In this document: positions 1 to 10,681 of the stretch, piece after piece
How the letters are laid out: the number at the start of each line of letters is the position of its first letter
How positions within the stretch are numbered: the stretch's first letter is position 1
Virus record (IMG/VR): IMGVR_UViG_2671181127_000010
Span: 1 to 10,681 of that record
DNA from: a virus
Lineage: Duplodnaviria; Heunggongvirae; Uroviricota; Caudoviricetes
Length of the DNA: 10,681 nucleotides
Reading direction: 5' to 3' (one strand)
Program-made: the position numbers and the translations under genes
Notes under the pieces: generated by a model
Databases searched by the model: none
What the model saw: the letters and a program-made list of their open reading frames with translations, nothing else
Told to the model about the DNA's origin: nothing

Positions 1-1242
1 ATGGCGAGAAAAACACCCCCATTAACCACAGTGCAGATCAAAGCAGCCAGACCAGCACAAAAGGAGTACACCCTACAGGACGGTGGGGGGCTTTTTCTCC
101 TGGTCAAACCGTCCGGATCAAAACTCTGGAGATTTTCCTACTACCGACCATCGGACAAAAAAAGAATATTACTTAGTTTTGGATCGCTTGATGATGTTTC
201 CCTGGCTGATGCCAGAAAACGCCGTAGCGAGTACAGGGCGTTAATTCTTGCCGGAACTGACCCTCAGGACCACGAGAGGCAAAAACGAGAGGCAGAGGCC
301 AGAAGACAGGGGAATACGTTCGAAAATGTGGCTGCGGCATGGTATCAGGTGAAAATCAGCCAGAATCTTGCACCCAACACGATTAAAGACATCTGGCGAT
401 CGCTGGAGAAATATATATTCCCGTTCATCGGCAACACGCCAATAGATACCCTCACCGCCCGAAGGTTCGTTGAAGTGCTTACCCCCATCAAGGAACGCGG
501 CAACCTGGAAACACTCAAGCGGGTTTTACAGCGCGTTAATGAGGTAATGGATTACGCCGCCAACAGTGGGCTGATTGATGCCAATCCGGCTATGAATGTG
601 CGTAAGGCGTTCCCCTCCCCTGTAAAAAAACATATGCCAACAATCAGGCCCGAGCAGTTGCCGGAACTTATGCAGGCTTTATCCGTATCGGCAACAGAAC
701 GGCAAACCAGGCTACTTATTGAGTGGCAGCTACTGACCGTAACCCGTCCAGTTGAAGCATCGTCGGCACGCTGGGAAGAAATCGACATGGAGGCGCAACG
801 CTGGACCATACCCGCCGGACGCATGAAGATGCGCCGCGACCACGTTATCCCGCTTTGTGACCAGGCTATGGCAGTGCTGGAGGCTATGAAACCAATCAGC
901 CACCACCGCGATTATGTTTTCCCGAGTCTGAAAGACCCACAGCAGCCGATGAACAGCCAGACCGCTAACGCAGCATTACGACGCATGGGGTTCGCTGGCG
1001 TGCTGGTGTCTCATGGATTACGCGCCATATTCAGCACAGCAGCGAACGAGGAAGGATTCGAGCCGGACGTAATAGAGGCGGCACTTGCCCACGTCGACAC
1101 CAACGAAGTTAGACGGGCATACAACCGGAGCAACTACATAGAAAAACGCATCGTGCTGATGCGCTGGTGGGGCGAATTTGTCGAGGCTGCGGCGACGGGC
1201 GTAACCCTCGCCAGTGGTAAAAGGGGTATCCGAGCCGTGTAG
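1..1242 (+). CDS. int: Tyrosine recombinase / integrase, P4-family (413 aa)
   Basis: Full ORF from window position 1. N-terminus LFLLVKPSGSKLWRFSYY resembles the P4-type integrase N-terminal domain; C-terminal catalytic-type motifs HGLRAIFST and a terminal Tyr region (RAYNRSNY). Followed by alpA, the typical satellite arrangement. Confidence 0.9.
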   Translation: MARKTPPLTTVQIKAARPAQKEYTLQDGGGLFLLVKPSGSKLWRFSYYRPSDKKRILLSFGSLDDVSLADARKRRSEYRALILAGTDPQDHERQKREAEARRQGNTFENVAAAWYQVKISQNLAPNTIKDIWRSLEKYIFPFIGNTPIDTLTARRFVEVLTPIKERGNLETLKRVLQRVNEVMDYAANSGLIDANPAMNVRKAFPSPVKKHMPTIRPEQLPELMQALSVSATERQTRLLIEWQLLTVTRPVEASSARWEEIDMEAQRWTIPAGRMKMRRDHVIPLCDQAMAVLEAMKPISHHRDYVFPSLKDPQQPMNSQTANAALRRMGFAGVLVSHGLRAIFSTAANEEGFEPDVIEAALAHVDTNEVRRAYNRSNYIEKRIVLMRWWGEFVEAAATGVTLASGKRGIRAV

Positions 1243-1319
1243 CTGTACAGAAAACCAGTAAAAACTACGAAAACCATGTAAAACCGTCGTATAATTGCAT
1301 CAAATTTAACGACAAGGCC

Positions 1320-1571
1320 GTGAAACATGAAACCGTTAAGATGCAAAAAAATATCAGATGCAATTGCGACGGGCTGCAACTGGCCCTGATGGTTCAGCAT
1401 GAATTTTGGTCAACCTACGATCCGGAGGACAGAACGACGGCCCCATCAAAAAAACAGGTAGTAGATTTTCTGGTATCCCGTGGCGCTTCCAGAAATCTGG
1501 CGGTAAGTATTGATAAGGTCGTACGTCCGGCATCTATGAAGATCGGAGGCAGGCCCAAAAAATGGCGGTAA
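1320..1571 (+). CDS. Hypothetical small protein (83 aa from GTG 1320; in-frame ATG at 1341)
   Basis: ORF between int and alpA, ends 10 bp before a clean intrinsic terminator; weak RBS, start uncertain; no recognisable motif. Confidence 0.3.
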   Translation: MKHETVKMQKNIRCNCDGLQLALMVQHEFWSTYDPEDRTTAPSKKQVVDFLVSRGASRNLAVSIDKVVRPASMKIGGRPKKWR

Positions 1572-1581
1572 CAATCCTGGA

Positions 1582-1606
1582 AGCGGCAGAAATGCCGCTT
1601 TTTTTA
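1582..1606 (+). terminator. Rho-independent terminator (AGCGGCA-gaaa-TGCCGCT plus T-run)
   Basis: Perfect 7-bp stem, 4-nt loop, followed by 8 T residues. Confidence 0.6.
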
Positions 1607-1632
1607 TAATTCCATTTCAAATCATCAATATA

Positions 1633-1720
1633 AAAAACGGTGTATACCGTTTAAAAACGGTGGGAACTGTTTTTACCCATATCCGATGATTTACCGTATT
1701 TGTCACCGGAATACACCGGA
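1633..1720. promoter_or_regulatory. Repeat-containing region upstream of alpA (candidate promoter/operator)
   Basis: Direct repeat AAAAACGGTG at 1633-1642 and 1653-1662 (20-bp phasing); small palindrome ACGGT-gtat-ACCGT at 1637-1650; tandem CACCGGA at 1704-1710 and 1714-1720. Confidence 0.3.
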
Positions 1721-1738
1721 TTCACAAGGTAAATCACG

Positions 1739-1945
1739 ATGGAAGCAATCAGAAAAATTATCTTTCGCCAGGAAGTAAAAAAAATTATCCACATCAAGGC
1801 AGACAGCACGCTGCAAAGCATGATCAACGCCGGAGAATTTCCGCAGGGTTTTCGCGTTGGTTTACGCCGTCGCGGATGGTATGAGGATGATGTGTTGGCC
1901 TGGCAGAAAGAACGCGAACAGGAAGCACGCGGAACGGCTGCTTAA
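1739..1945 (+). CDS. alpA: AlpA-family (prophage CP4-57 regulatory, Vis-like) small DNA-binding regulator, 68 aa
   Basis: Size, position downstream of a P4-family integrase, and motif FRQEV...GEFPQGFRVGLRRRGWYEDDVLAW matching the AlpA pattern (RLPEV...GxFP.P.KLG.R...W...V..W). RBS AAGG 9 nt upstream. Confidence 0.75.
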   Translation: MEAIRKIIFRQEVKKIIHIKADSTLQSMINAGEFPQGFRVGLRRRGWYEDDVLAWQKEREQEARGTAA

Positions 1946-2093
1946 CGGGTATCACAGATATGACAAACACGAAAAAAGCGGCCCCGATATGGAGCCGCCT
2001 TTCTGAACAATTAACCCGCTGCGCCTTATGTGTATATGATCCCAAACATAAGCACGGGGATGATAGCCGCTATCAGGCTGGTGGGCAATGCAA

Positions 2094-2282
2094 TCAGTCT
2101 GGTTCAGTTCGTTGCCATACCTGCAATGAGCGCGTTTCCCTGTACTCTTTAAGGAATTGCTCAAGGGCAAAAGCACATGGCGCGAATCTTTCTGATTCAT
2201 GCTCTATCTTTCTGCGCCGTCTTTTCCGTGCCGGTGATAATGTTTTGGTCAATTCTTTATCGGTCATTGTGTTGTCCTGCAT
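2094..2282 (-). CDS. Hypothetical small basic protein (62 aa; alternative start at 2267)
   Basis: ORF downstream of the RHH gene on the same strand; contains an RRRRK run; weak RBS. Low support. Confidence 0.2.
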   Translation of the reverse strand: MQDNTMTDKELTKTLSPARKRRRRKIEHESERFAPCAFALEQFLKEYRETRSLQVWQRTEPD

Positions 2283-2324
2283 AGCAATGCGCCGTAATAC
2301 CTTACACCACGGCGCTGATGGTGA

Positions 2325-2630
2325 TTACTCTGGTTCTTTGGTCTTGCGGCGCTGGAGTTCTTCACGTGCGACAGTGACGAGCTGCCCGATCTCCTCGGCG
2401 GCTTTGATTCCGAGTTTTTCCACCTGCGCCAGTGCATCGAGCGAAGAAACTAGGGGATTTTCTCCACTTCCTTCTGCCTGGCGCCGGGCGATCTCACCGC
2501 GTACAGCCGTAACTATAAAATTCGCTTTAGTTTCCCCTGGCTGTAGGGATGCCTCAATGCCACTCACTACTTCATGTGGAAATCTGGCATTCAGTTGCTG
2601 TGACTTATTGTTAACAGAACTCCTGGACAT
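2325..2630 (-). CDS. Ribbon-helix-helix (Arc/Mnt-like) DNA-binding protein, 101 aa; candidate master repressor of the island
   Basis: Start ATG at 2630-2628 (minus) preceded by strong RBS GGAGGTG. N-terminus QQLNARFPHEVVSGIEASLQPGETKANFIVTAV fits the Arc/Mnt RHH pattern (hN.R.P.EV...A...G.S.N..I...V). Divergent from the Ash operon across an operator-bearing intergenic region. The long ORF-track version (2325..2810) is an N-terminal over-extension. Confidence 0.65.
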   Translation of the reverse strand: MSRSSVNNKSQQLNARFPHEVVSGIEASLQPGETKANFIVTAVRGEIARRQAEGSGENPLVSSLDALAQVEKLGIKAAEEIGQLVTVAREELQRRKTKEPE

Positions 2631-2660
2631 GTTTGCACCTCCCATTAATAACGGGATGCA

Positions 2661-2727
2661 GTGTAATACAAAAGTGAATACCAAAAAAGACTTGAAATGG
2701 TATTCACCTAAATGTAATGTGAATACC
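2661..2727. promoter_or_regulatory. Operator array in divergent promoter region (9-bp inverted repeats GTGAATACC / GGTATTCAC)
   Basis: GTGAATACC at 2674-2682 and 2719-2727, GGTATTCAC at 2699-2707; TGTAAT immediately 5' of sites at 2662-2667 and 2713-2718; possible -35 TTGAAA at 2692-2697 lying inside the first inverted repeat. Confidence 0.55.
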
Positions 2728-2765
2728 ACAAGTGCTGATACATGCAATTCAGCAATTGAAACGAC

Positions 2766-2800
2766 GAAGCCCCGCACTGTTGGAGCAGTAACGGGGCTTC
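2766..2800 (+). other. Stem-loop in the 5' leader of the Ash operon (GAAGCCCCG ... CGGGGCTTC)
   Basis: Perfect 9-bp GC-rich inverted repeat with 17-nt loop, 28 bp upstream of the 2829 start codon; no T-run, so not a canonical terminator. Confidence 0.3.
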
Positions 2801-2828
2801 TAACCAACAACGTAAACTAGGAGCCGTT

Positions 2829-3386
2829 ATGGTTGCTGTAAATCATATACCACACCTTGTACACACACAAACGGCCTTTGTGTGGCGTTTTCTGGCCCTG
2901 AATATCGGAGAAAAAAACCGCTTGATCGCCACCAGCAAAAATGGCTATGATTCCCGCGCACCTCATAAAACGGGTGTCGGGATTAGCCTCCTGAAAACAA
3001 CTGAAGCGCACAGCACGCGCCCTGCGTGTTTTTTTGTGCCGCATAGTCACACCTTATCAATGGTGGGCTGTACGGGGGCGGAGCAATCCGCGCCGGTTTC
3101 TTCAGTGTCCGGTAAGGCTAACCCTGTACAGTCCGCCACCAGCGAAATTAGCCTTTTGCGTGGCGGTTATCTTAACCACACTGAGGAGGCTGCCAACATG
3201 GCTACTATCCCTACCCTTGTACATTCTCAAACCGCATTTATCTGGCGCTTTATCATCTTTGGCGCGTCAGAATCTCAAATCATCCACGTAACCGCCTGGA
3301 CGGAACGCGAAGCGCGTAGCCGTTGCCCGTCAGGTTGTGTTGCTGTATTCGCCGCCCGTATTCGTCAGGGGTCACATCATGCGTAA
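2829..3386 (+). CDS. Ash-family-like protein with C-terminal Icd-like domain (185 aa)
   Basis: RBS TAGGAG 6 nt upstream of ATG. Contains two copies of the motif VH.QTAF.WRF and a C-terminal TEREAR...VFAARIRQG block, which I recall as the signature of Ash / Icd-like small proteins of P4-type islands (family name from memory, not verified). Confidence 0.55.
   Translation: MVAVNHIPHLVHTQTAFVWRFLALNIGEKNRLIATSKNGYDSRAPHKTGVGISLLKTTEAHSTRPACFFVPHSHTLSMVGCTGAEQSAPVSSVSGKANPVQSATSEISLLRGGYLNHTEEAANMATIPTLVHSQTAFIWRFIIFGASESQIIHVTAWTEREARSRCPSGCVAVFAARIRQGSHHA
3198..3386 (+). CDS. Icd-like small protein, 62 aa: in-frame internal start inside the 2829..3386 ORF
   Basis: Strong RBS GAGGAGG 7 nt upstream of internal ATG 3198; product MATIPTLVHSQTAFIWRF...TEREARSR...VFAARIRQG is a complete Icd-like unit. 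Could be a separately translated nested product. Confidence 0.4.
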   Translation: MATIPTLVHSQTAFIWRFIIFGASESQIIHVTAWTEREARSRCPSGCVAVFAARIRQGSHHA

Positions 3387-3843
3387 AAACCGCTTGCAAA
3401 AAATTATAACGGGGCTGTATGCTTCCCCAGTCGCCCACATGGCGACCGGGTTTAGCAGCCTGAATACTACAGCGGACAGCCGCTTACATTCCGATATGCG
3501 GTTTTTTTGTGTCCGTAAACCTACCCATACCCGCATTATGGCGGGGCGTAACGGGGGAGCCTTTGCGCTCGCTGGTTCCTGTAGTGCCAGTCTGCTAACC
3601 CTGTTACGTCTCGCCACCCCGTTTAGCAGCGTAGTAGCGAGACTCCTTAATTTCACTACAGGAGCCTTTCACATGGCTGTATTCACACGCCCTTATTTTG
3701 TCTGGCGCTTTATGCAGTGCCACCACAGCAGCATTGATATTTACACCGTTACCGCAGCCACTGAACGCGAAGCCCGCGCCCAGTTGCCGCACGCACATCT
3801 GATTTTTGTCGCCCGTATTCGTCAGGGGGTGTGCCATGCCTGA
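3379..3843 (+). CDS. Ash-family-like paralog with C-terminal Icd-like domain (154 aa from ATG 3379)
   Basis: Motifs FFCVRKPTHTRIMAG (paralogous to CFFVPHSHTLSMVG in the upstream gene) and YFVWRF...TEREARAQ...IFVARIRQG. Start 3379 overlaps the upstream stop by 8 nt; the ORF-track start 3337 is probably an over-extension. Confidence 0.55.
   Translation: MRKNRLQKIITGLYASPVAHMATGFSSLNTTADSRLHSDMRFFCVRKPTHTRIMAGRNGGAFALAGSCSASLLTLLRLATPFSSVVARLLNFTTGAFHMAVFTRPYFVWRFMQCHHSSIDIYTVTAATEREARAQLPHAHLIFVARIRQGVCHA
3673..3843 (+). CDS. Icd-like small protein, 56 aa: in-frame internal start inside the 3379..3843 ORF
   Basis: RBS CAGGAG 8 nt upstream of ATG 3673; product MAVFTRPYFVWRF...TEREARAQ...VARIRQG. 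Confidence 0.35.
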   Translation: MAVFTRPYFVWRFMQCHHSSIDIYTVTAATEREARAQLPHAHLIFVARIRQGVCHA

Positions 3844-4156
3844 TATGTCAAATTACCAGTACCTGATTAATCCGCATTTTAAGTGTGATCATGATATTGC
3901 TAAGAAGGTTTATTCCGCTGCTTATGGGGCTACTGACAATATATCAATGGGTATTGCGTCAATTGGTAGCCTGATGTGGTATGCGTCAGAAAATAAGGAA
4001 TATGACGAAAAGGCCATGCGCATTGATATGGGTAATATCGGTTTGTTACTGGCAATGCTTGGGCAGTTTGATATTTCGTTACGGTGCACCATTGAAAATG
4101 CCAAAGATGCATTAAATGCTATAAAGAAAGCGAATACTGATTTAAATCGGGGATAA
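3836..4156 (+). CDS. Hypothetical protein, 106 aa, AT-rich cargo-like gene
   Basis: ATG 3836 with RBS GGGGGTG, overlaps upstream stop (ATGCCTGA). About 35% GC in the first 60 nt versus clearly more GC-rich flanking genes. No recognisable motif. Confidence 0.55.
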   Translation: MPDMSNYQYLINPHFKCDHDIAKKVYSAAYGATDNISMGIASIGSLMWYASENKEYDEKAMRIDMGNIGLLLAMLGQFDISLRCTIENAKDALNAIKKANTDLNRG

Positions 4157-4162
4157 ATAATC

Positions 4163-4462
4163 ATGAGAACATATTTATCTGGCTTGACTGCCAGCGGCCC
4201 CGCTCGGCCTGAAATCCGCCCCGGAGATATTTTCAGAGATAACTACGGTGGCGTTGTTGAGATTAAAGGCGTGGCAGAACGGCGCATTACCTACCGCCGT
4301 GAAGGCTACGAATATGATTGCGTGATGCCTGTTTATCAGTTCCGGCGTGATTTTTCTCTGGTACAGGCAGCGCCCCGCAGTAAACCAACCAGCAGGGAGA
4401 AAGCACGCGCCAATATTCAGGAAATAAGAAAGATGTTGAATGTATTCAGGGGTAAAAAATGA
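4163..4462 (+). CDS. Hypothetical protein, 99 aa, immediately upstream of and coupled to the primase
   Basis: ATG 4163; stop overlaps primase start (ATGA at 4459-4462). Basic C-terminus. Function unknown. Confidence 0.55.
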   Translation: MRTYLSGLTASGPARPEIRPGDIFRDNYGGVVEIKGVAERRITYRREGYEYDCVMPVYQFRRDFSLVQAAPRSKPTSREKARANIQEIRKMLNVFRGKK

Positions 4463-6207
4463 AACTGGCACCGAACGTAAAAAAACAACCACGCGGAATA
4501 AAACACAAAGACACAGAGGTAATTATTTTCGCGGGTAGTGATGCGTGGGCACATGCAAAACAGTGGCAGGAGCAGGACGGCCCCGCATCCGGCGATAATG
4601 TGCCGCCTGTGTGGCTTGGGCCAAATCAGCTTGCCGAACTTGATGCACTGAAAATTGTTCCTGATGGAAAAAAACGCGTAAGGCTGTACCAGGCCGGAGA
4701 ACTGGATTTGGTGGAGACCAAAAAGATTGGTCAGAAGCTGGCGGCGGCAGATATTCAGGACGCAAATTTTTACCCCGAAGGAATGCACGTCCAGAAGTGT
4801 GAAAACTGGCGGCGCTATCTGAATGCTGAGCGTGAAAATATTGCCGCAGGGCTTACCATGCCGGAGCAGAAAAATACGCAACTGGCACAAATGGCAGACA
4901 GTGAGCGCGCGCAGCTGCTTGCCGAGCGCTTTGATGGCGTTTGTGTGCATCCGGAAAGTGAAATCGTTCACGTATGGCGCGGCGGGGTATGGTGTCCGGT
5001 CAGCACAATGGAACTTAGCCGCGAAATGGTGGCGATCTATTCAGAGCACAGGGCCACTTTCAGCAAGCGCGTAATCAATAACGCCGTGGAAGCGTTAAAA
5101 GTTATTGCCGAACCAATGGGCGAGCCGTCCGGCGATTTGTTGCCGTTCGCCAATGGTGCGCTTGACCTGAAAACGGGGGAATTTTCCCCGCACACGCCGG
5201 AGAACTGGATCACCACGCACAACGGCATTGAGTACACGCCACCAGCACCAGGGGAGAATATCTGCGACAACGCGCCAAACTTTCATAAATGGCTTGAGCA
5301 CGCAGCCGGAAAAGACCCGCGCAAGATGATGCGTATATGTGCCGCGCTGTACATGATTATGGCGAACCGGTACGACTGGCAGATGTTTATTGAGGCCACC
5401 GGAGAGGGCGGTAGCGGTAAAAGTACATTCACGCACATAGCCAGCCTTCTGGCAGGGAAACAGAACACGGTAAGCGCTGAAATGACCTCACTTGATGATG
5501 CTGGTGGACGTGCGCAGGTTGTCGGGAGTCGTCTTATCGTCCTGGCTGACCAGCCGAAATATACAGGCGAAGGAACGGGCATCAAGAAAATCACGGGCGG
5601 CGACCCCGTGGAAATAAACCCGAAATATGAGAAGCGTTTTACGGCGGTAATCAGGGCGGTGGTGCTGGCTACCAACAATAACCCGATGATATTCACCGAG
5701 CGGGCCGGAGGTGTGTCACGCCGTCGGGTGATTTTCCGGTTCGACAACATTGTAAGGGAGGACGAAAAAGACAAGGATTTGCCGGAGAAGGTCGCGGCTG
5801 AAATCCCCGTAATTATCCGTCGCTTGCTGGCTAATTTTGCCGACCCTGAAAAGGCACGGGCTTTATTACTGGAACAGCGCGACGGTGATGAAGCTCTGGC
5901 AATAAAGCAACAGACGGATCCGGTTATTGAGTTTTGCCAGTTCCTGAATTTTCTGGAGGAAGCACGCGGCCTGATGATGGGCGGCGGTGGCGATTCAGTG
6001 AAGTACACGACCAGAAACAGCCTTTACCGCGTCTATCTGGCGTTTATGGCATACGCAGGCAGGAGCAAACCGCTAAACGTGGCTGAGTTCAGCAAGGCCA
6101 TGAAGACAGCGGCAAAAGTTTACGGACATGAATATATTACGCGGAGAGTTAAGGGAGTAACGCAGACCAACGCAATTACAACTGATGATTGTGACGCGTT
6201 TTTATAA
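4459..6207 (+). CDS. Replication protein: primase / D5-type SF3 NTPase (P4 alpha C-terminal-like), 582 aa
   Basis: Walker A GEGGSGKST encoded around 5401-5427 in the D5/P4-alpha-type context (phage/plasmid primase P4-family C-terminal NTPase); RBS AGGGG 7 nt upstream; followed directly by an iteron array. Confidence 0.88.
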   Translation: MKLAPNVKKQPRGIKHKDTEVIIFAGSDAWAHAKQWQEQDGPASGDNVPPVWLGPNQLAELDALKIVPDGKKRVRLYQAGELDLVETKKIGQKLAAADIQDANFYPEGMHVQKCENWRRYLNAERENIAAGLTMPEQKNTQLAQMADSERAQLLAERFDGVCVHPESEIVHVWRGGVWCPVSTMELSREMVAIYSEHRATFSKRVINNAVEALKVIAEPMGEPSGDLLPFANGALDLKTGEFSPHTPENWITTHNGIEYTPPAPGENICDNAPNFHKWLEHAAGKDPRKMMRICAALYMIMANRYDWQMFIEATGEGGSGKSTFTHIASLLAGKQNTVSAEMTSLDDAGGRAQVVGSRLIVLADQPKYTGEGTGIKKITGGDPVEINPKYEKRFTAVIRAVVLATNNNPMIFTERAGGVSRRRVIFRFDNIVREDEKDKDLPEKVAAEIPVIIRRLLANFADPEKARALLLEQRDGDEALAIKQQTDPVIEFCQFLNFLEEARGLMMGGGGDSVKYTTRNSLYRVYLAFMAYAGRSKPLNVAEFSKAMKTAAKVYGHEYITRRVKGVTQTNAITTDDCDAFL

Positions 6208-6219
6208 TTTTTTGTAAAA

Positions 6220-6446
6220 GCCCTCTACCCCATCTACCTGAATGAAATAAACGCATATTATTCAACATGATAAGTGGGTAGAGGGCTAGGTAGAAGGCTA
6301 ATAAAACCTCTCTACCTCTTCTACCATGATTAAGATCGTTTGTGAGGGGCGGGTAGAGGATGGGTAGAGGGCCACGAAAGCCCTCTACCCATCTGAAAGC
6401 CGCGCCATTACTGACATGAAAGATGATTAGGTAGAGAGGTAGAGGA
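6220..6446. repeat. Iteron array / putative replication origin (11 copies of GGTAGAGG / CCTCTACC and variants)
   Basis: Octamer copies at 6222, 6231, 6277, 6289, 6309, 6318, 6352, 6363, 6382, 6430, 6438 in both orientations; perfect 14-bp inverted repeat GATGGGTAGAGGGC (6359-6372) / GCCCTCTACCCATC (6380-6393); AT-rich segment 6239-6275 between repeat clusters. Confidence 0.7.
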
Positions 6447-6493
6447 GGTGCACCACAACCTAAAACTTTTTAAACACGAGGGTAAAAATAAAA

Positions 6494-6772
6494 ATGCACA
6501 CATCAGGAAGATTTAACAAATCACTCAAAAAACGCAAAGACAGAACAGCACCAAGATATAAAGCGCTGGAGATGACAGAGCACGCCTTAAAGGTGGCTAT
6601 AAAGGTGATAGACATCACAGCGGGAGAAGGATACTCGAAAGCACATCCCGAACTAATAAGCGCATTCATGACCACGGCGGCGGCAAACTTTGCCACGCTG
6701 ACAGAGCGGGAGATTGCAGAAGCGGAACAGGTAACAACCATCAACGTTAAAACCGGAGAGGTGGAATCATGA
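6494..6772 (+). CDS. Hypothetical protein, 92 aa
   Basis: ORF directly after the iterons; stop overlaps the SSB start (ATGA at 6769-6772); RBS-like GAGGGT about 11 nt upstream. Confidence 0.5.
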   Translation: MHTSGRFNKSLKKRKDRTAPRYKALEMTEHALKVAIKVIDITAGEGYSKAHPELISAFMTTAAANFATLTEREIAEAEQVTTINVKTGEVES

Positions 6773-7179
6773 CAGCACAGATAGCCGCTTACGGGCGGCT
6801 GGTGGACGACCCGCAGGTAAAACAGACCAGCAAGGGTACACCGATGACGCTGGCGCGTATGGCGGTATCTTTGCCATGTAGTCAGGCGCAGGATGGGCAG
6901 GCGACGTTATGGCTATCGGTCATCGCATTTGGTAAGCAGGCCGACTTCCTGGCTAAACATCAAAAAGGCGACGTTGCCAGCGTATCCGGCACGATGCAGG
7001 TCAGCCAGTGGACCGGACAGAACGGGGAAACGCGGCAGGGTTATCAGGTTATTGCAGACAGCGTAATCAGTGCCCGTGCGGCACGTCCTGGCGGGAACAG
7101 ACGCAAAACCACAGGCACACAGGGTAATCAGCCACCAGCGGGAGACGATGACCCCTACGGTGATGATATTCAGTTCTGA
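6769..7179 (+). CDS. ssb: Single-stranded DNA-binding protein (SSB family), 136 aa
   Basis: N-terminal OB-fold pattern IAAYGRLVDDPQVKQTSKGTPMTLARMAVS and LWLSVIAFGKQADFLA...QVSQWTGQNGETRQGYQV parallels E. coli SSB; Gly/Pro/Gln-rich linker; acidic C-terminal tip DDDPYGDDIQF analogous to the SSB DDDIPF tail. RBS GGAGAGG upstream. Confidence 0.8.
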   Translation: MTAQIAAYGRLVDDPQVKQTSKGTPMTLARMAVSLPCSQAQDGQATLWLSVIAFGKQADFLAKHQKGDVASVSGTMQVSQWTGQNGETRQGYQVIADSVISARAARPGGNRRKTTGTQGNQPPAGDDDPYGDDIQF

Positions 7180-7189
7180 GGGGGTGACG

Positions 7190-7462
7190 ATGGTACATGA
7201 CCGCATAGCGGAGGAACTCGAGGCAAAAGGCTTTTACCGGAGGGCATCGGCGCGATGGGGTGAAGTCATGCTGCTGGTGGAGACAGACAAGGAACGGCAT
7301 CAGGTTACGATGCGACGGCTGGAATGTTCCAGGAAGGCACAGAAGCCACCGGAGCCGCCGGATAACTTCGGAGACCTGAGAAAGGCAGTAGATCGCACTT
7401 ATGCTGAAATGGGTATAGATGGTGTAAGCGATGAAATATGGCGTAATTACCCAGACAGCTAA
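7190..7462 (+). CDS. Hypothetical protein, 90 aa
   Basis: ATG 7190 with RBS GGGGGTGA, 11 nt after the SSB stop; the ORF-track start 7070 overlaps the SSB and is an over-extension. Followed by a terminator. Confidence 0.55.
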   Translation: MVHDRIAEELEAKGFYRRASARWGEVMLLVETDKERHQVTMRRLECSRKAQKPPEPPDNFGDLRKAVDRTYAEMGIDGVSDEIWRNYPDS

Positions 7463-7468
7463 TCAACA

Positions 7469-7490
7469 GCCGGAGTAATCCGGCTTTTTT
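7469..7490 (+). terminator. Rho-independent terminator (GCCGGA-gtaa-TCCGGC plus T6)
   Basis: Perfect 6-bp GC stem, tetraloop, T-run. Confidence 0.7.
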
Positions 7491-7496
7491 GTACCC

Positions 7497-7540
7497 AAAA
7501 AAAGCCCGATAAGTACAGGAGGCATCTTATCGGGCTTTTG
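7497..7540. terminator. Second hairpin, potentially bidirectional terminator (A-run, GCCCGATAAG ... CTTATCGGGC, T-run)
   Basis: Perfect 10-bp stem at 7504-7513 / 7526-7535, flanked by A7 upstream and T4 downstream. Confidence 0.5.
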
Positions 7541-7573
7541 CATATGAGGTTTTTTTTGGTGCACTGACACACA

Positions 7574-7666
7574 TGATCGGGATCATCATTTCATAATTTG
7601 CAACACAACTCAACATCATTGCATAAAATGCAATCATGATTATAATCAGATCTGGATGAACATCCA
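7574..7666 (+). promoter_or_regulatory. Sigma70-type promoter with overlapping palindromic operators, upstream of the capsid module
   Basis: TTGCAT (7619-7624), 16-bp spacer, TATAAT (7641-7646). Palindromes: TGATCggGATCA 7574-7585; TTGCAT-aaa-ATGCAA 7619-7633 over the -35; TGATTATAATCA 7637-7648 over the -10; CTGGATG-aa-CATCCAG 7651-7666 at the predicted transcript start. Confidence 0.55.
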
Positions 7667-7702
7667 GTTATGATTTTTTAAGTCAAAGAGGAATTTCTTA
7701 CT

Positions 7703-7909
7703 ATGGCTGAAGAGAAAAAAGGCGGTGTTTCGGTGTACATAAGCCCCGACATCGTGAAGGCGCTCAAGGAACGCCACCAGCAGAACGTAAAAGCAGGCAT
7801 TGCGGCAGGACTTGATCCGCTGGCGATGGTTGAGCCGTCAACAGGCTGGCAGGTACGCGCCTATTTACGCGCGGCGCTGGGTATGAATCAGGTTCACGGG
7901 GGTGAATAA
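7703..7909 (+). CDS. Hypothetical small protein, 68 aa, first gene of the capsid module
   Basis: RBS AAGAGGA 10 nt upstream; stop overlaps the capsid gene start (TAATG). VSVYISPDIVKALKERH could be a beta-strand/helix DNA- or protein-binding element; function unknown. Confidence 0.6.
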   Translation: MAEEKKGGVSVYISPDIVKALKERHQQNVKAGIAAGLDPLAMVEPSTGWQVRAYLRAALGMNQVHGGE

Positions 7910-8964
7910 TGACAGTAAAAGCAATAGCACTTAACACTAACCAGCTTTTCGCGTACCTGAATCGCGAGGATATTGCGGAATTTAAATTCAGTCCGCTGTT
8001 TACCGCGCTGTTTTTCCCGAACGTGGCGACATTCAACACACAGGACATCATGTTAGATAACCTGGATATTGAAGAAGTCACTATGTCGGCGTTTTGTTCG
8101 CCTATGGTTGGTAGCCAGGTTCAGCGCGATAAAGGGTACGAAACCAGCATTATTCGCCCTGGCTACATGAAGCCAAAACACGAAATCGATCCATTAAAAA
8201 CAATAATGCGCATGGCTGGAGAAGATCCGGCACAGCTTAACGACCCTACCTACCGCCGTATGCGCCTGATTACTGGCAACATGCGCCGCCAGATAAACGC
8301 CATTAAAGCGCGCGTGGAATGGCTGGCGGTGAATGCGATAACGACCGGAAAAAACATCATTGAGGGCGAAGGCATAGAGCGCTATGAAATCGACTGGAAG
8401 ATACCGGAAAAAAACATCATAGAGCAGGCCGACGGTAAAAAATGGTCAGAGCAGGACAAAGACATACACGACCCAATCTATGACATTGAGCTATACGCAG
8501 ATCAGGCAGGTTGCCCCGCAAACGTCATGATTATGGGCGTTGATGTATGGCGCATGTTACGCAGCTTTAAAAAATTCCGTGAACTGTACGATCTCTCCCG
8601 TGGTTCAGAATCCGCCGCAGAGCTGGCATGTAAAAACCTGGGAGAAGTGGTGAGCTTTAAAGGCTATCTTGGTGATCTGGCCCTTATCGTCTATTCCGGC
8701 AAATACACTGACAGCGACGGCACAGAAAAATATTTCCTTGCGCCTGATTTGCTGGTCCTGGGCAACACCAACAATAAAGGGCTGGTGGCCTATGGTGCGA
8801 TTATGGAACAGGAAGCGGTAAGAACGGGCGCAACGCAAAACATGTTTTACCCGAAAAACTGGATTGAAGACGGCGATCCGGCGATTGAGTACGTGCAGAC
8901 ACACAGCGCGCCGCAGCCTGTTCCGGCAGATATTCGCAAATTTGTTACCGTCAAAATTGGTTAA
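7909..8964 (+). CDS. Major capsid protein, phage lambda gpE family (351 aa)
   Basis: Multiple blocks match my recollection of lambda gpE: FKFSPLFTALFF vs FKFDPLFLRLFF; PGYMKPKHEIDP vs PGYVKPKHEVNP; EDPAQLNDPTYRRMRLITGNMR vs EDPQNLADPAYRRRRIIMQNMR; WSEQDKDIHDPIYDIELYA vs WSKRDKSTYDPTDDIEAYA; YPKNWIEDGDPAIEY..QTHSAP vs YPKNWVTTGDPAREF..IQSAP. Similar length (351 vs 341 aa). Confidence 0.85.
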   Translation: MTVKAIALNTNQLFAYLNREDIAEFKFSPLFTALFFPNVATFNTQDIMLDNLDIEEVTMSAFCSPMVGSQVQRDKGYETSIIRPGYMKPKHEIDPLKTIMRMAGEDPAQLNDPTYRRMRLITGNMRRQINAIKARVEWLAVNAITTGKNIIEGEGIERYEIDWKIPEKNIIEQADGKKWSEQDKDIHDPIYDIELYADQAGCPANVMIMGVDVWRMLRSFKKFRELYDLSRGSESAAELACKNLGEVVSFKGYLGDLALIVYSGKYTDSDGTEKYFLAPDLLVLGNTNNKGLVAYGAIMEQEAVRTGATQNMFYPKNWIEDGDPAIEYVQTHSAPQPVPADIRKFVTVKIG

Positions 8965-8975
8965 CGGTGGATTCT

Positions 8976-9311
8976 ATGAACACTCCATACATTGAGTTAT
9001 TTGCAGGCAGTCAGCAGGTATCAACGACGCTGGTACATTTTGCCGCTGATGCTGGCGTTATTCAGGAATTTACCCCGCTGATGCTGGCGGACAATGGCGA
9101 GTTTAAGCCGTGGGATGGTCAGGAATCTGGCAAGGCTGTTTATCTGACTTCGTATCCTGTGGACACGTCAAAGCAGAAATCAGCACAGTGTTACAAGACG
9201 GGGATATTCAATATTGCCGCCGTTAACTGGCCTGAGAGCGTCGACACCGATGCGAAAAAATGCGCCGCCTTTGCGGGTTCCGGCGTATCCGTTCAGCCGC
9301 TGGCCCGATAA
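8976..9311 (+). CDS. Head decoration protein, lambda gpD-like (111 aa from ATG 8976; alternative GTG start 8967)
   Basis: TPLMLA, WDG, and C-terminal YKTGIFN...VNWPESVDTDAKKCAAFAGSGVSV parallel lambda gpD ([44 protein letters not shown]). RBS GGTGGA 5 nt upstream of ATG 8976. Confidence 0.8.
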   Translation: MNTPYIELFAGSQQVSTTLVHFAADAGVIQEFTPLMLADNGEFKPWDGQESGKAVYLTSYPVDTSKQKSAQCYKTGIFNIAAVNWPESVDTDAKKCAAFAGSGVSVQPLAR

Positions 9312-9323
9312 GCAGGGGGAACG

Positions 9324-9737
9324 ATGGCAACGAATGAAAGCATCATGGCGCTACCGCTGGCGAGTAAATTTAAAGAAGAAGCGCGGGCAATGGCTGACAG
9401 AGGTTTATCAACCTACGAGGCCGTATATCAACTCAACAAACTGGAAGAGCAGGACAAGCCGCGCGCTGATGCGATTATGGCGCTTCATGAGCATAAAGAC
9501 TATCAGCCGCTGTTACGTGCAATGGCAAACGTGCCATGTATTAGCGTCGATAATGCTCGTGAAATCCTGAACATGACCATAGAGCAGGAGCGCCCAAAGG
9601 TTGCACCAGAGCTTACCGCAGCCTTTGAAAACTTTATGGACATGCACAGCCCGCAAGCCGTATCAGCTGGCATGGCATACGATGGCAGAAACCAGGGCGA
9701 TGACGGCGACATCGATCGCATACTGAAAACCATCTGA
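9324..9737 (+). CDS. Hypothetical protein, 137 aa, last gene of the capsid module
   Basis: RBS GGGGGA 5 nt upstream; acidic C-terminus; followed by a terminator and a cos site. No confident motif. Confidence 0.6.
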   Translation: MATNESIMALPLASKFKEEARAMADRGLSTYEAVYQLNKLEEQDKPRADAIMALHEHKDYQPLLRAMANVPCISVDNAREILNMTIEQERPKVAPELTAAFENFMDMHSPQAVSAGMAYDGRNQGDDGDIDRILKTI

Positions 9738-9743
9738 GACAAG

Positions 9744-9767
9744 GCCGGAGAAATCCGGCTTTTTTTT
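9744..9767 (+). terminator. Rho-independent terminator (GCCGGA-gaaa-TCCGGC plus T8)
   Basis: Perfect 6-bp stem, tetraloop, 8 T residues; near-identical to the hairpin at 7469-7490. Confidence 0.7.
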
Positions 9768-9768
9768 A

Positions 9769-9840
9769 CGGGTCCTTTCCGGCATATGGACCCGTTACGG
9801 GGCGGCGACCTCGCGGTTTTTCGCTATTTATGAGATTTTT
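9769..9840 (+). other. Lambda-type cos site, copy L (cosN core GGGCGGCGACCT at 9800-9811, cosB side to the right)
   Basis: 9800-9838 reads GGGCGGCGACCTCGCGGTTTTTCGCTATTTATGAGATTT, close to the lambda genome left end GGGCGGCGACCTCGCGGGTTTTCGCTATTTATGAAAATTTTCCGG. Preceded by a hairpin ACGGGTCC...GGACCCGT. Confidence 0.75.
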
Positions 9841-10187
9841 TGAGGGGGTGGTTGTTGTTTAATTGTTTGGTATATCTAATTGATAAGTAAGGTAAAAATA
9901 AAATAAATACAACAACCTTACGATGTATTTTGATGTCATTAATGTGAAAAAATTCAATGATATCAAATGGTTTTGTAAAAACACATGGTTGTTGTATCGC
10001 GTATTTGATGGCGTAACAGAAAGTGATTTTTAACTTTACCGCTCTGTAACTACGGATTATTCCATGCTGGCACGGAGAACGGCTACGGCATGACGCCACC
10101 CAGCCTATACAGAACAGTAAAGCCGATAAATTGTTAATCACGCGCAGCAATGCGTGTGATTTTTGCACACTTCCGGTTAACTGGTAC

Positions 10188-10286
10188 GATGTCCGGTTTT
10201 AGTGTCTGTTTTTTGCGCATGTCCGGTTCATGGAAAGCATGTTTTTATATTTTTCATATGGTTAACTTGCAGAGAAACCGGACATG
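10188..10286. repeat. Candidate cosB R-type elements for the R cos site (ATGTCCGGTT repeats)
   Basis: ATGTCCGGTT at 10189-10198 and 10219-10228 (direct), inverted copy AACCGGACATG at 10276-10286, partial copy TCCGGTT at 10172-10178; positioned about 40, 100 and 130 bp from the R cosN, resembling the R3/R2/R1 layout of lambda cosB as I recall it. Confidence 0.4.
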
Positions 10287-10292
10287 GATCCC

Positions 10293-10370
10293 GGAAAATT
10301 TTCATAAATAGTGAAAACGCGCGAGGTCGCCGCCCCGTAACGGGCCATAATTCCAGGAAGGACCCGACGA
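10293..10370 (-). other. Lambda-type cos site, copy R (cosN core at 10324-10335 on the minus strand, cosB side to the left)
   Basis: Reverse complement of 10293-10335 reads GGGCGGCGACCTCGCGCGTTTTCACTATTTATGAAAATTTTCCGG, two mismatches from the lambda left-end sequence over 45 nt. Forms a roughly 70-bp imperfect inverted repeat with copy L. Confidence 0.8.
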
Positions 10371-10399
10371 CACCAGACTATCAGAGCGATGGGGGCACA

Positions 10400-10681
10400 A
10401 TGACAGAAGCCGAACTACTGGGATTAATCCGCCGCGTCGCCGGAATCAGCCAGCAGCATGACGAACAGGCCACACAGCCGGACAGCGTGACCGCTGAAAA
10501 TTATGTGCGTGTTGTAGCGGAAGTGATGCGCCGTGATGGTATAGAACTTAATGGCGTTGATATGCGCAACATACGGAACCGCGTTCTTGAAATGCTGGCC
10601 TACAATCGCCGCGTTGAACTGTATCGGGAGAAAGAAAAAATAACGTACCACTGGAAGAAGCCGGAACGGCTGCGGCGGTAA
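10400..10681 (+). CDS. Hypothetical small basic protein, 93 aa, adjacent to the R cos site
   Basis: ATG 10400 with G-rich RBS; the ORF-track extension from 10202 runs through the cos site and is rejected. Ends at the window edge with TAA. Function unknown. Confidence 0.5.
   Translation: MTEAELLGLIRRVAGISQQHDEQATQPDSVTAENYVRVVAEVMRRDGIELNGVDMRNIRNRVLEMLAYNRRVELYREKEKITYHWKKPERLRR

Follow-up and report, generated by a model that had tools for sequence, protein, structure and literature searches.

The DNA analysed here, called the window throughout, is a stretch of 10,681 nucleotides (positions 1 to 10,681 of the IMG/VR virus record IMGVR_UViG_2671181127_000010) that, by gene content and order, is a Gram-negative phage-inducible chromosomal island (PICI) of the EcCICFT073 type, i.e., a phage satellite of Escherichia coli. 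Our subject is the intergenic region ahead of its capsid genes, where the original prediction had placed a near-consensus promoter overlaid by palindromes and held off by dimeric regulators until a specific signal, perhaps late-gene activation by the helper phage. The features that we recognize there, with O1 and O2 denoting two candidate operators, are as follows:

7574..7585, unstranded: palindrome TGATCggGATCA, with two GATC sites, not conserved
7588..7604, unstranded: O1, ATTTCATAATTTGCAAC, an imperfect 17-bp dyad with its centre near -57
7608..7614, unstranded: A-n-TCAAT box between the operators, TCAA (near-)invariant in 40 variants
7618..7634, unstranded: O2, ATTGCATAAAATGCAAT, a perfect 7+3+7 dyad of 17 bp with its centre near -27, the left half being the -35 element
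7619..7624, plus strand: -35 element TTGCAT, three of six matches to TTGACA, TTGC conserved
7619..7624 and 7628..7633: palindrome TTGCAT-aaa-ATGCAA, the core of O2
7632..7641: fifth perfect palindrome, AATCATGATT, bridging two others and missing from the original prediction
7637..7648: palindrome TGATTATAATCA around the -10 element
7641..7646, plus strand: -10 element TATAAT, inside palindrome TGATTATAATCA, TAAAAT in about 30% of variants
7650..7669, unstranded: candidate LexA (SOS) box ATCTGGATGAACATCCAGTT, core CTG-N10-CAG at 7652-7667, overlapping the predicted start near 7653
7652..7667: palindrome CTGGATGaaCATCCAG at the start site
7674..7693, plus strand: conserved leader, a T-run and then AGTCAAAGAGGAAT, the Shine-Dalgarno sequence of the first gene
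7703..7909, plus strand: gene for a 68-amino-acid (aa) protein, first in the operon, PHROG 3255, its stop codon overlapping the capsid ATG

On sequence grounds this region is the sigma-70 promoter of the PICI capsid (late) operon, with its activity predicted and a transcription start expected near 7653 from the position of the -10 element. The description of this promoter as near-consensus holds in part: TATAAT is perfect and lies 16 bp from TTGCAT, but the latter agrees with the consensus at only three of six positions and a consensus promoter scan did not report the site. An extended -10 is absent, as the TG falls one base too far upstream. For comparison we drew on 12 E. coli genomes and on contigs that carry a gene for a homologue of the 68-aa protein (among them Salmonella, Pluralibacter, 43 metagenomic loci and several from IMG/VR), a sample that yielded 40 unique promoter variants; the loci named most often below are L013 (Salmonella), L015 (Pluralibacter), L187 (an IMG/VR relative), and L188 and L189 (distant homologues without a capsid gene). 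Five of the six positions of the -10 hexamer are invariant across these variants, which were themselves selected on a -10 motif, and conservation falls into four blocks (7585-7604, 7608-7614, 7618-7634 and 7637-7648). Almost all variants share the leader; Salmonella and Pluralibacter carry substitutions in it.

Nowhere is the intergenic region more conserved than at O1 and O2. They form a direct repeat 30 bp (three helical turns) apart, and nothing else in the window matches ATTKCATNNNATGMAAT with two or fewer mismatches, 0.25 matches being expected. O1 carries 1.4–1.8 bits of information per column, the exceptions being its centre (7595) and its outermost position (7604), while the conserved core of O2 is ATTGC-nn-AAAATGCAAT. 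The conserved unit is the 17-bp dyad ATTGC-N7-GCAAT; the left side of the inner TTGCAT/ATGCAA symmetry is not conserved. This inner palindrome over the -35 had been seen in the original prediction, and it is indeed the core of O2, but the sister dyad 30 bp upstream had been overlooked. The dyad consensus is RTTKCAT-N3-ATGCAAY and the pooled half-site R-T-T-K-C-A-W-W. Other lineages show that O1 and O2 are, as far as sequence can tell, two copies of one operator: in Salmonella O1 is a perfect dyad, ATTTCATATTATGAAAT, and in L187 both dyads are near perfect (ATTGCACTTTATGCAAT at O1 and GTTGCATGTTATGCAAT). Few lineages depart from the 30-bp phasing (L157 has 31 bp and L187 32 bp), and pair and phasing alike occur upstream of 68-aa homologues of 39–47% identity, even where no capsid gene lies downstream (L188 and L189). 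Because the pair persists where capsid genes are missing, the conserved cassette is the promoter, the two operators and the small gene. We read O1 and O2 as putative sites for a dimeric (or dimer-of-dimers) regulator, in a geometry that would suit cooperative repression. Upstream of the O1/O2 promoter, L188 (400-610) and L189 (40-110) also carry many copies of GTGAGGAG/GTGGGGAG repeats, which are probably replication-origin iterons.

The palindromes lie where they had been reported, apart from the one at the start site, which runs to 7667, one base beyond the end (7666) first given, and they are denser than chance. Taking perfect inverted repeats with arms of at least 5 and loops of at most 4 in a 94-nt span, we obtained seven entries from five different palindromes (two appear twice, at different spacer settings), which together cover 59 of the 94 nt; 5,000 dinucleotide-preserving shuffles gave a mean coverage of 12 nt (P about 2e-4 for coverage and 5e-3 for count), and only about 1% of 94-nt windows of the 10.7-kb sequence hold at least four such repeats. 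As regulator sites, however, they fare unequally: the O2 core and the start-site palindrome are conserved, whereas TGATCggGATCA, found in about a quarter of variants, and TGATTATAATCA are not maintained as palindromes. The right-arm C of TGATCggGATCA at 7584 is present in 10 of the 40 variants, most of the element has 0.3–1.2 bits per column, and it is missing from the L004 clade, L009, L013 and L015; it is probably a strain-specific product of chance, without function. TGATTATAATCA is conserved as sequence and not as palindrome, its symmetry being lost without compensation in the TAAAAT variants and in L006, and on that pattern it is the -10 hexamer plus flanks with no independent control site. 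In this variant three GATC (Dam) sites surround the promoter (7575-7584 and 7650-7653), two of them in TGATCggGATCA; the third has arisen in the left flank of the LexA box (AGATCT), through the same change that makes this the lowest-scoring variant of that box.

The palindrome at the predicted start is the core of the candidate LexA box, and that LexA binds it seems to us somewhat the better supported of the two outcomes. The core, CTGGATGAACATCCAG, is a CTG-N10-CAG element with an A/T-rich centre; the centres in relatives are ATAAACAT, ATAAATAT and ATGAAAAT. Scored with a position weight matrix (PWM) built from 18 published boxes (reference sites from PMC3009722), it reaches 16.1 bits in the window and 18–21.6 bits in relatives, within the leave-one-out range of the known boxes (6.6–27.6 bits), and its heterology index (HI) of 6.0–9.2 (9.2 in the window) compares with 0.6–12.6 for known boxes left out singly. 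It is one of two LexA outliers in the window: the third-best site scores 8.5 bits, shuffle maxima average 8.4, and 2.5% of these maxima reach the window's best score of 16.9 bits. Most relatives carry AACTGGAT...ATCCAGTT or GACTGGAT...ATCCAGTT, which also match the consensus flanks, and the AC..GT flanks that extend the LexA consensus are conserved. Among substitutions, those from G to A at 7658 in O157 and to A..T in Salmonella run toward the consensus. The 20-mer begins 3 nt past the -10 in box-carrying relatives, except in Pluralibacter, where it begins at 15 nt (12 nt further downstream); likewise, it is the top LexA match in each of five box-carrying islands scanned, bar Pluralibacter, where it comes second to a site about 4 kb downstream. 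In all, 18 of 27 unique leader variants, or about 80% of sampled loci, have the box. Among chromosomal boxes, that of ruvA (CGCTGGATATCTATCCAGCA) has arms, CTGGAT/ATCCAG, identical to those in the window, and the arms of the cho box resemble them; the candidate shares with ruvAB and cho the CTG-N10-CAG spacing, the level of PWM score and HI, and the overlap with a promoter, and differs in having GAAC or AAAC in its centre, where the ruvAB/cho type is purely alternating AT, and in lying on a mobile element. Our literature search found no report of LexA binding or SOS-dependent expression at this promoter.

The other LexA-quality site of the window, and its best by score, is AGCTGTACAGAAAACCAGTA at 1241-1260 (16.9 bits, HI 7.7), which lies over the integrase stop codon. 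On its 3' side follow tandem AAAACC-type repeats, a TATAAT at 1290-1295, an unannotated 83-aa open reading frame (ORF) at 1320-1571 and a strong terminator at 1579-1602. A comparable LexA-type site stands between int and alpA in the CFT073 island (L002 position 2988, 18.1 bits).

Since the conserved dyads lie over the -35 and the start site, bound dimers would block RNA polymerase, and we conclude that dimeric repressors very probably hold the capsid promoter off. A more specific version, in which the promoter is doubly repressed—by LexA at the start site and by a dimeric protein on O1/O2—we rate as evenly poised. The promoter would then be held off by two independent sets of dimer sites. A protein on O2 would exclude RNA polymerase from the -35, because O2 contains that element, and cooperative binding at O1 would tighten the block, while the ruvA/cho-type LexA box (CTGGAT-N4-ATCCAG) would cover -2 to +15. 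The operon would be SOS-inducible, firing under the same DNA-damage signal as the helper prophage. Of what had originally been proposed, the capsid-module promoter is thus borne out, with conserved dyads over the -35 and the start site, and the idea of a promoter waiting for a specific signal survives in the form of a probable SOS/LexA signal, which also induces the helper prophage. Of helper late-gene activation we saw no sign: the sites are placed for repression rather than activation, and no O1/O2-type dyads occur in the lambda genome. The likely signals are the host SOS response together with the O1/O2-binding protein, and not a helper late-gene activator. A helper regulator using the same operators on its own genome is rejected likewise, given their absence from lambda and a blastn search of 50,697 phage records that returned nothing similar to the promoter.

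Several observations weigh against this picture of double repression. The start site is only predicted, and the weak -35 leaves room for an activator. A LexA score near 16 bits arises by chance in a few percent of shuffled 10-kb windows, and no variant found is weaker than the window's own box (16.1 bits, HI 9.2). No LexA box is present in the L004-type clade or in L187, L188 and L189, though all of these keep O1/O2; because some clades do without it, the box would be an accessory input and not a core feature. The start-site palindrome could also act in RNA, as a hairpin followed by a U-run. Finally, induction of alpA in EcCICFT073 is reported to be SOS-independent and helper-dependent, and induction of the early region of Gram-negative PICIs is AlpA-dependent (PMC6092414). 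SOS thus does not drive PICI induction as a whole, so that LexA gating of the late operon would add another input, distinct from the first.

As to which protein would occupy O1/O2, our expectation is divided: the host repressor CytR and the 68-aa product are each a tentative candidate, and the remainder falls to some other PICI, helper or host factor. On the first of these possibilities, O1 and O2 would be operators of CytR, the nucleoside repressor, offering four half-sites on the same face of the helix and silencing the promoter without CRP, with release by cytidine or by titration at high PICI copy number. The pooled half-site fits the CytR octamer GTTGCATT, with matches at eight of eight positions in L015 and L188 and at five to seven in the window (seven in the right half of O2), and yet only one octamer at the window's promoter dyads comes within one mismatch of it, and across the window near-matches are not enriched (8 found vs 14.7 expected). 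The optimum obtained for CytR by systematic evolution of ligands by exponential enrichment (SELEX), as quoted in PMC3454398, is AYGTGCAAC-N10-13-GTTRCATT; the right half of O1 and the left half of O2 together read TGCAAC-N13-ATTGCA, an inward-facing pair that fits this optimum, as does the inward pair of Pluralibacter, AATGCAAC-N13-GTTGCATT. Set beside the operators of the CytR regulon, then, the octamer is RTTGCATW here in place of GTTGCATT, and the inward N13 spacing is within the range that SELEX permits. The half-sites are, moreover, near-constant while the 68-aa protein drifts to 39–47% identity, as expected of a conserved host factor, and all identified hosts are Enterobacteriaceae. However, each natural CytR target has at least one CRP site (PMC3454398), whereas none flanks the dyads here: read by eye, nothing like TGTGA-N6-TCACA exceeds 6/10 in 7540-7660. 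The half-sites within a dyad are oriented oppositely to the canonical TGCAA-N2-3-TTGCA, and octamer pairs set head-to-head at 1 bp are no documented CytR arrangement. CytR operators thus differ from O1/O2 in their CRP flanks, in lacking an arrangement of four half-sites as two head-to-head dyads, and in not belonging to a mobile element. Nucleoside sensing also has no obvious biological connection with capsid genes, and the resemblance was spotted post hoc, among roughly 30 motifs weighed.

The second possibility, to which we attach a similarly modest expectation, is that the 68-aa protein encoded first in the operon itself binds O1/O2, acting as a small autoregulator of ribbon-helix-helix (RHH)-like fold, with a dimer on each TGCA-containing half-site and a tetramer on each dyad. 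The 68-aa gene lies directly behind the O1/O2 promoter at every locus examined, no other gene is a constant companion of the operators, and this linkage holds with or without an upstream PerC gene, with three types of primase, and ahead of either capsid genes or a tail-spike module (L188). The protein has a strand-helix-helix sequence pattern (VSVYISPDIVKALKE...GWQVRAYLRAALG) in which V9, V11, I13 and R52 are invariant and R56 is nearly so, and its AlphaFold2 model (predicted local distance difference test score 72) has an N-terminal strand region (a beta-hairpin) plus two helices. In hhalign the strand and first helix align in register with CopG and NikR (P = 0.02–0.06, vs 0.16–0.5 for three non-RHH controls). 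A fold search with the model gave no significant match; the weak ones include the RHH proteins TraM and CdbA. The family is small (31 clusters at 90% identity, 16 representatives at 50%), and it recruited no remote annotated relative.

Two other proteins of the island were considered as binders and set aside. PerC is rejected, as many islands keep O1/O2 without perC (L004–L006, L009, L010, L012 and L017). AlpA is unlikely, the alpA promoter region having different repeats (AAAAACGGTG) and no dyad. Upstream of the alpA-like gene (1739-1945), direct and inverted repeats of AAAAACGGTG (AAAACGGTGTATACCGTTTAAAAACGGTG) at 1627-1668, unrelated to O1/O2, are candidate sites of AlpA autoregulation.

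A reading that dispenses with LexA at the start site, and which we consider improbable, is that the palindrome there works in RNA, as a 5' stem-loop with a U-run serving attenuation or mRNA stabilisation; it might then belong to an antitermination cassette of the Q or AlpA type, with the helper's Q or the AlpA of the PICI as its reader. The palindrome is listed by a terminator scan, all variants have a T-run ahead of the Shine-Dalgarno sequence, and the Pluralibacter hairpin folds at -10.7 kcal/mol directly before T6. The hairpin of the window, by contrast, folds weakly (-6.4 kcal/mol, z = -1.5), that of the L004 clade has all but disappeared (-1.9 kcal/mol), and in L187 none can be made out by eye. 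The predicted start lies inside the left arm, and therefore the full stem could not form in RNA. The conserved AC..GT flanks also point to LexA instead. For an antitermination cassette there is precedent in Pseudomonas aeruginosa, where AlpA is an antiterminator whose binding element sits inside the spacer of the promoter, with a terminator some 26 bp downstream (PMC7969949), and PICIs encode AlpA. Furthermore, ATTGCATAAAAT in O2 (7618-7629) is identical at 11 of 12 positions to ATTGAATAAAAT, which lies between the -35 and -10 of lambda pR' (L186, about 44560-44571) and which we take to be part of the Q-binding element, and TATGAT at 7669-7674 resembles a -10-like pause element. The lambda 12-mer is, however, 7 nt out of register with the -10 and probably a coincidence, TATGAT is not conserved among variants, and the alpA promoter region has unrelated repeats. 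With the hairpin weak or absent in several clades besides, we reject the antitermination cassette.

Least probable of all, and in our view very unlikely, is that the palindromes have no regulatory role and the promoter is an AT-rich constitutive one whose symmetry stems from a self-complementary TATA core plus chance: two of the four palindromes originally listed do fail conservation, a -10 is inherently near-palindromic, and the EcCICFT073 capsid gene c1499 has no known phenotype, deletion of c1499 or c1500 not relieving lambda interference (PMC6092414). Against it, palindrome density is far above shuffle expectation, and different genera retain O1/O2 at a fixed phasing of 30 bp, with changes that restore their symmetry. 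The LexA box, too, is of high quality and stays in position wherever relatives have it, each of them with a score higher than that of the window's copy. Sites for sigma-54, IHF, CRP, FNR, ArgR, NsrR, PurR, lambda CII (TTGC-N6-TTGC) and Fur (12/19) were rejected by eye for wrong spacing or poor match. A cos site at the promoter is rejected too, cosN lying about 2.1 kb downstream, as is the doubled attP motif of helper-embedded PICIs, which has a different sequence. An Rfam search found no credible RNA family in the promoter region.

The remaining features of the operon and its upstream boundary are:

7468..7490, plus strand: intrinsic terminator closing the upstream (PerC) unit, stem AGCCGGAGTAATCCGGCT followed by a T-run
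7500..7545, unstranded: second terminator hairpin, bidirectional-looking, with a perfect 14-bp stem (100% complementary) flanked by an A-run and a T-run
7909..8964, plus strand: homologue of the lambda gpE-type major capsid protein (Pfam Phage_cap_E, E = 2.6e-49)
8967..9311, plus strand: homologue of the lambda gpD-type head decoration protein (Pfam HDPD, E = 5.5e-18)
9324..9737, plus strand: 137-aa protein, PHROG 1999, last gene before the terminator at 9741-9762

Because two strong terminators lie directly upstream, the capsid genes would form a separate transcription unit. The terminators fold jointly at -35 kcal/mol (z = -4.5), and the hairpin at 7500-7545 is kept in most relatives. In gene order, the window runs through integrase, AlpA-like, Ash, DUF4222, D5-type primase, SSB and PerC (Pfam assignments), followed by the 68-aa ORF, the gpE-like capsid, the gpD-like decoration protein, the 137-aa protein and a TerS/Rpp-like gene. 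It has the marks by which PICIs are recognized (int, alpA and pri-rep, then packaging/capsid genes in one direction, a cos site and a length of about 10–15 kb), and its layout is that of the EcCICFT073 island of CFT073, with which it shares 94.5% identity over the promoter segment (7540-7720). Of 5,426 complete E. coli genomes, about 600–730 carry the intergenic region, CFT073, Nissle 1917 and O157:H7 among them. Scans of contigs at one genome per species found no relatives, and an IMG/VR scan for ATTGCATNNNATGCAAT gave, among the matches listed, only PICI copies besides chance hits.

Other observations concern the neighbouring genes. The 137-aa protein has weak similarity to head-maturation protease/scaffold proteins in their C-terminal part (PHROG 53, E = 1e-10) and may be scaffold-like. 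A lambda-type cosN, GGGCGGCGACCT, lies at about 9799-9812, between the capsid-operon terminator and the TerS/Rpp-like gene; on its 3' side is an AT-rich stretch of about 400 bp, presumably the location of the PICI-specific cosB. Upstream of the promoter, a mechanically called 130-aa GTG ORF (7070-7462) overlaps the SSB gene, and the PerC homologue of related islands is about 90 aa long (RefSeq), which would put its start near 7190 in the window. A duplicated P4/P1-type RNA immunity cassette occupies 2958-3621, in and around the Ash-family gene and the next ORF, with matches to C4 antisense RNA at 3056-3143 (75 bits) and 3534-3621 (72 bits), to isrK at 2958-3034 (64 bits) and, below threshold, at 3430-3508 (37 bits), and a c4-a1b1 target at 3417-3466 just below threshold.

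The literature that we found on these islands covers AlpA-dependent induction, Rpp and cos and gave no account of the capsid promoter; nor, in the literature reached, did we find a description of how late (capsid/packaging) genes are timed in Gram-negative PICIs. O1/O2 represent a compact, portable and highly conserved putative control cassette, and naming their regulator would fill a gap in PICI biology and be useful for engineering PICI-based delivery vehicles. Going further, one might suppose either that the operon is silenced wholly by borrowed host repressors (LexA at the start site plus CytR or a CytR-like protein on four phased half-sites) or that the 68-aa protein founds a new regulator family, a pair of outcomes that we offer as speculation and think doubtful. 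If the former were true, the satellite would need no late-gene regulator of its own, and expression would require SOS induction and, in addition, that replication of the island titrate away a repressor in short supply; if the latter, satellites would have an undescribed family of small DNA-binding regulators of late operons.

The proposed arrangement has parallels in known systems. Tandem dyads that share a helix face, with one covering the -35, are likewise found in lambda OR1/OR2 and in the Arc, Mnt and CopG operators, and as in those phage and plasmid repressor operators the geometry of O1/O2 fits cooperative dimer binding and promoter occlusion; the spacing is 30 bp (three turns) here instead of 24 bp, and the sequence is unrelated to lambda's. 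A functional analogy exists with the staphylococcal pathogenicity islands (SaPIs), whose packaging operon (operon I) is LexA-controlled (Ubeda 2007, as cited in PMC6092414). SaPI operon I is, as we propose here, a late/packaging operon of a satellite with its own promoter and a host SOS repressor as gate, and hence with expression at the time when DNA damage induces the helper prophage. SaPIs, however, are Gram-positive and their genes unrelated, and the box in the window is a prediction, overlaps the start site and is missing in one clade. We know of no SaPI counterpart to a second operator pair such as O1/O2. By this analogy, the capsid promoter would be a new instance of a repressor-gated late promoter in a phage satellite and, if the LexA box is confirmed, it would mirror SaPI operon I as a case of convergent SOS wiring of satellite packaging in Gram-positive and Gram-negative hosts.

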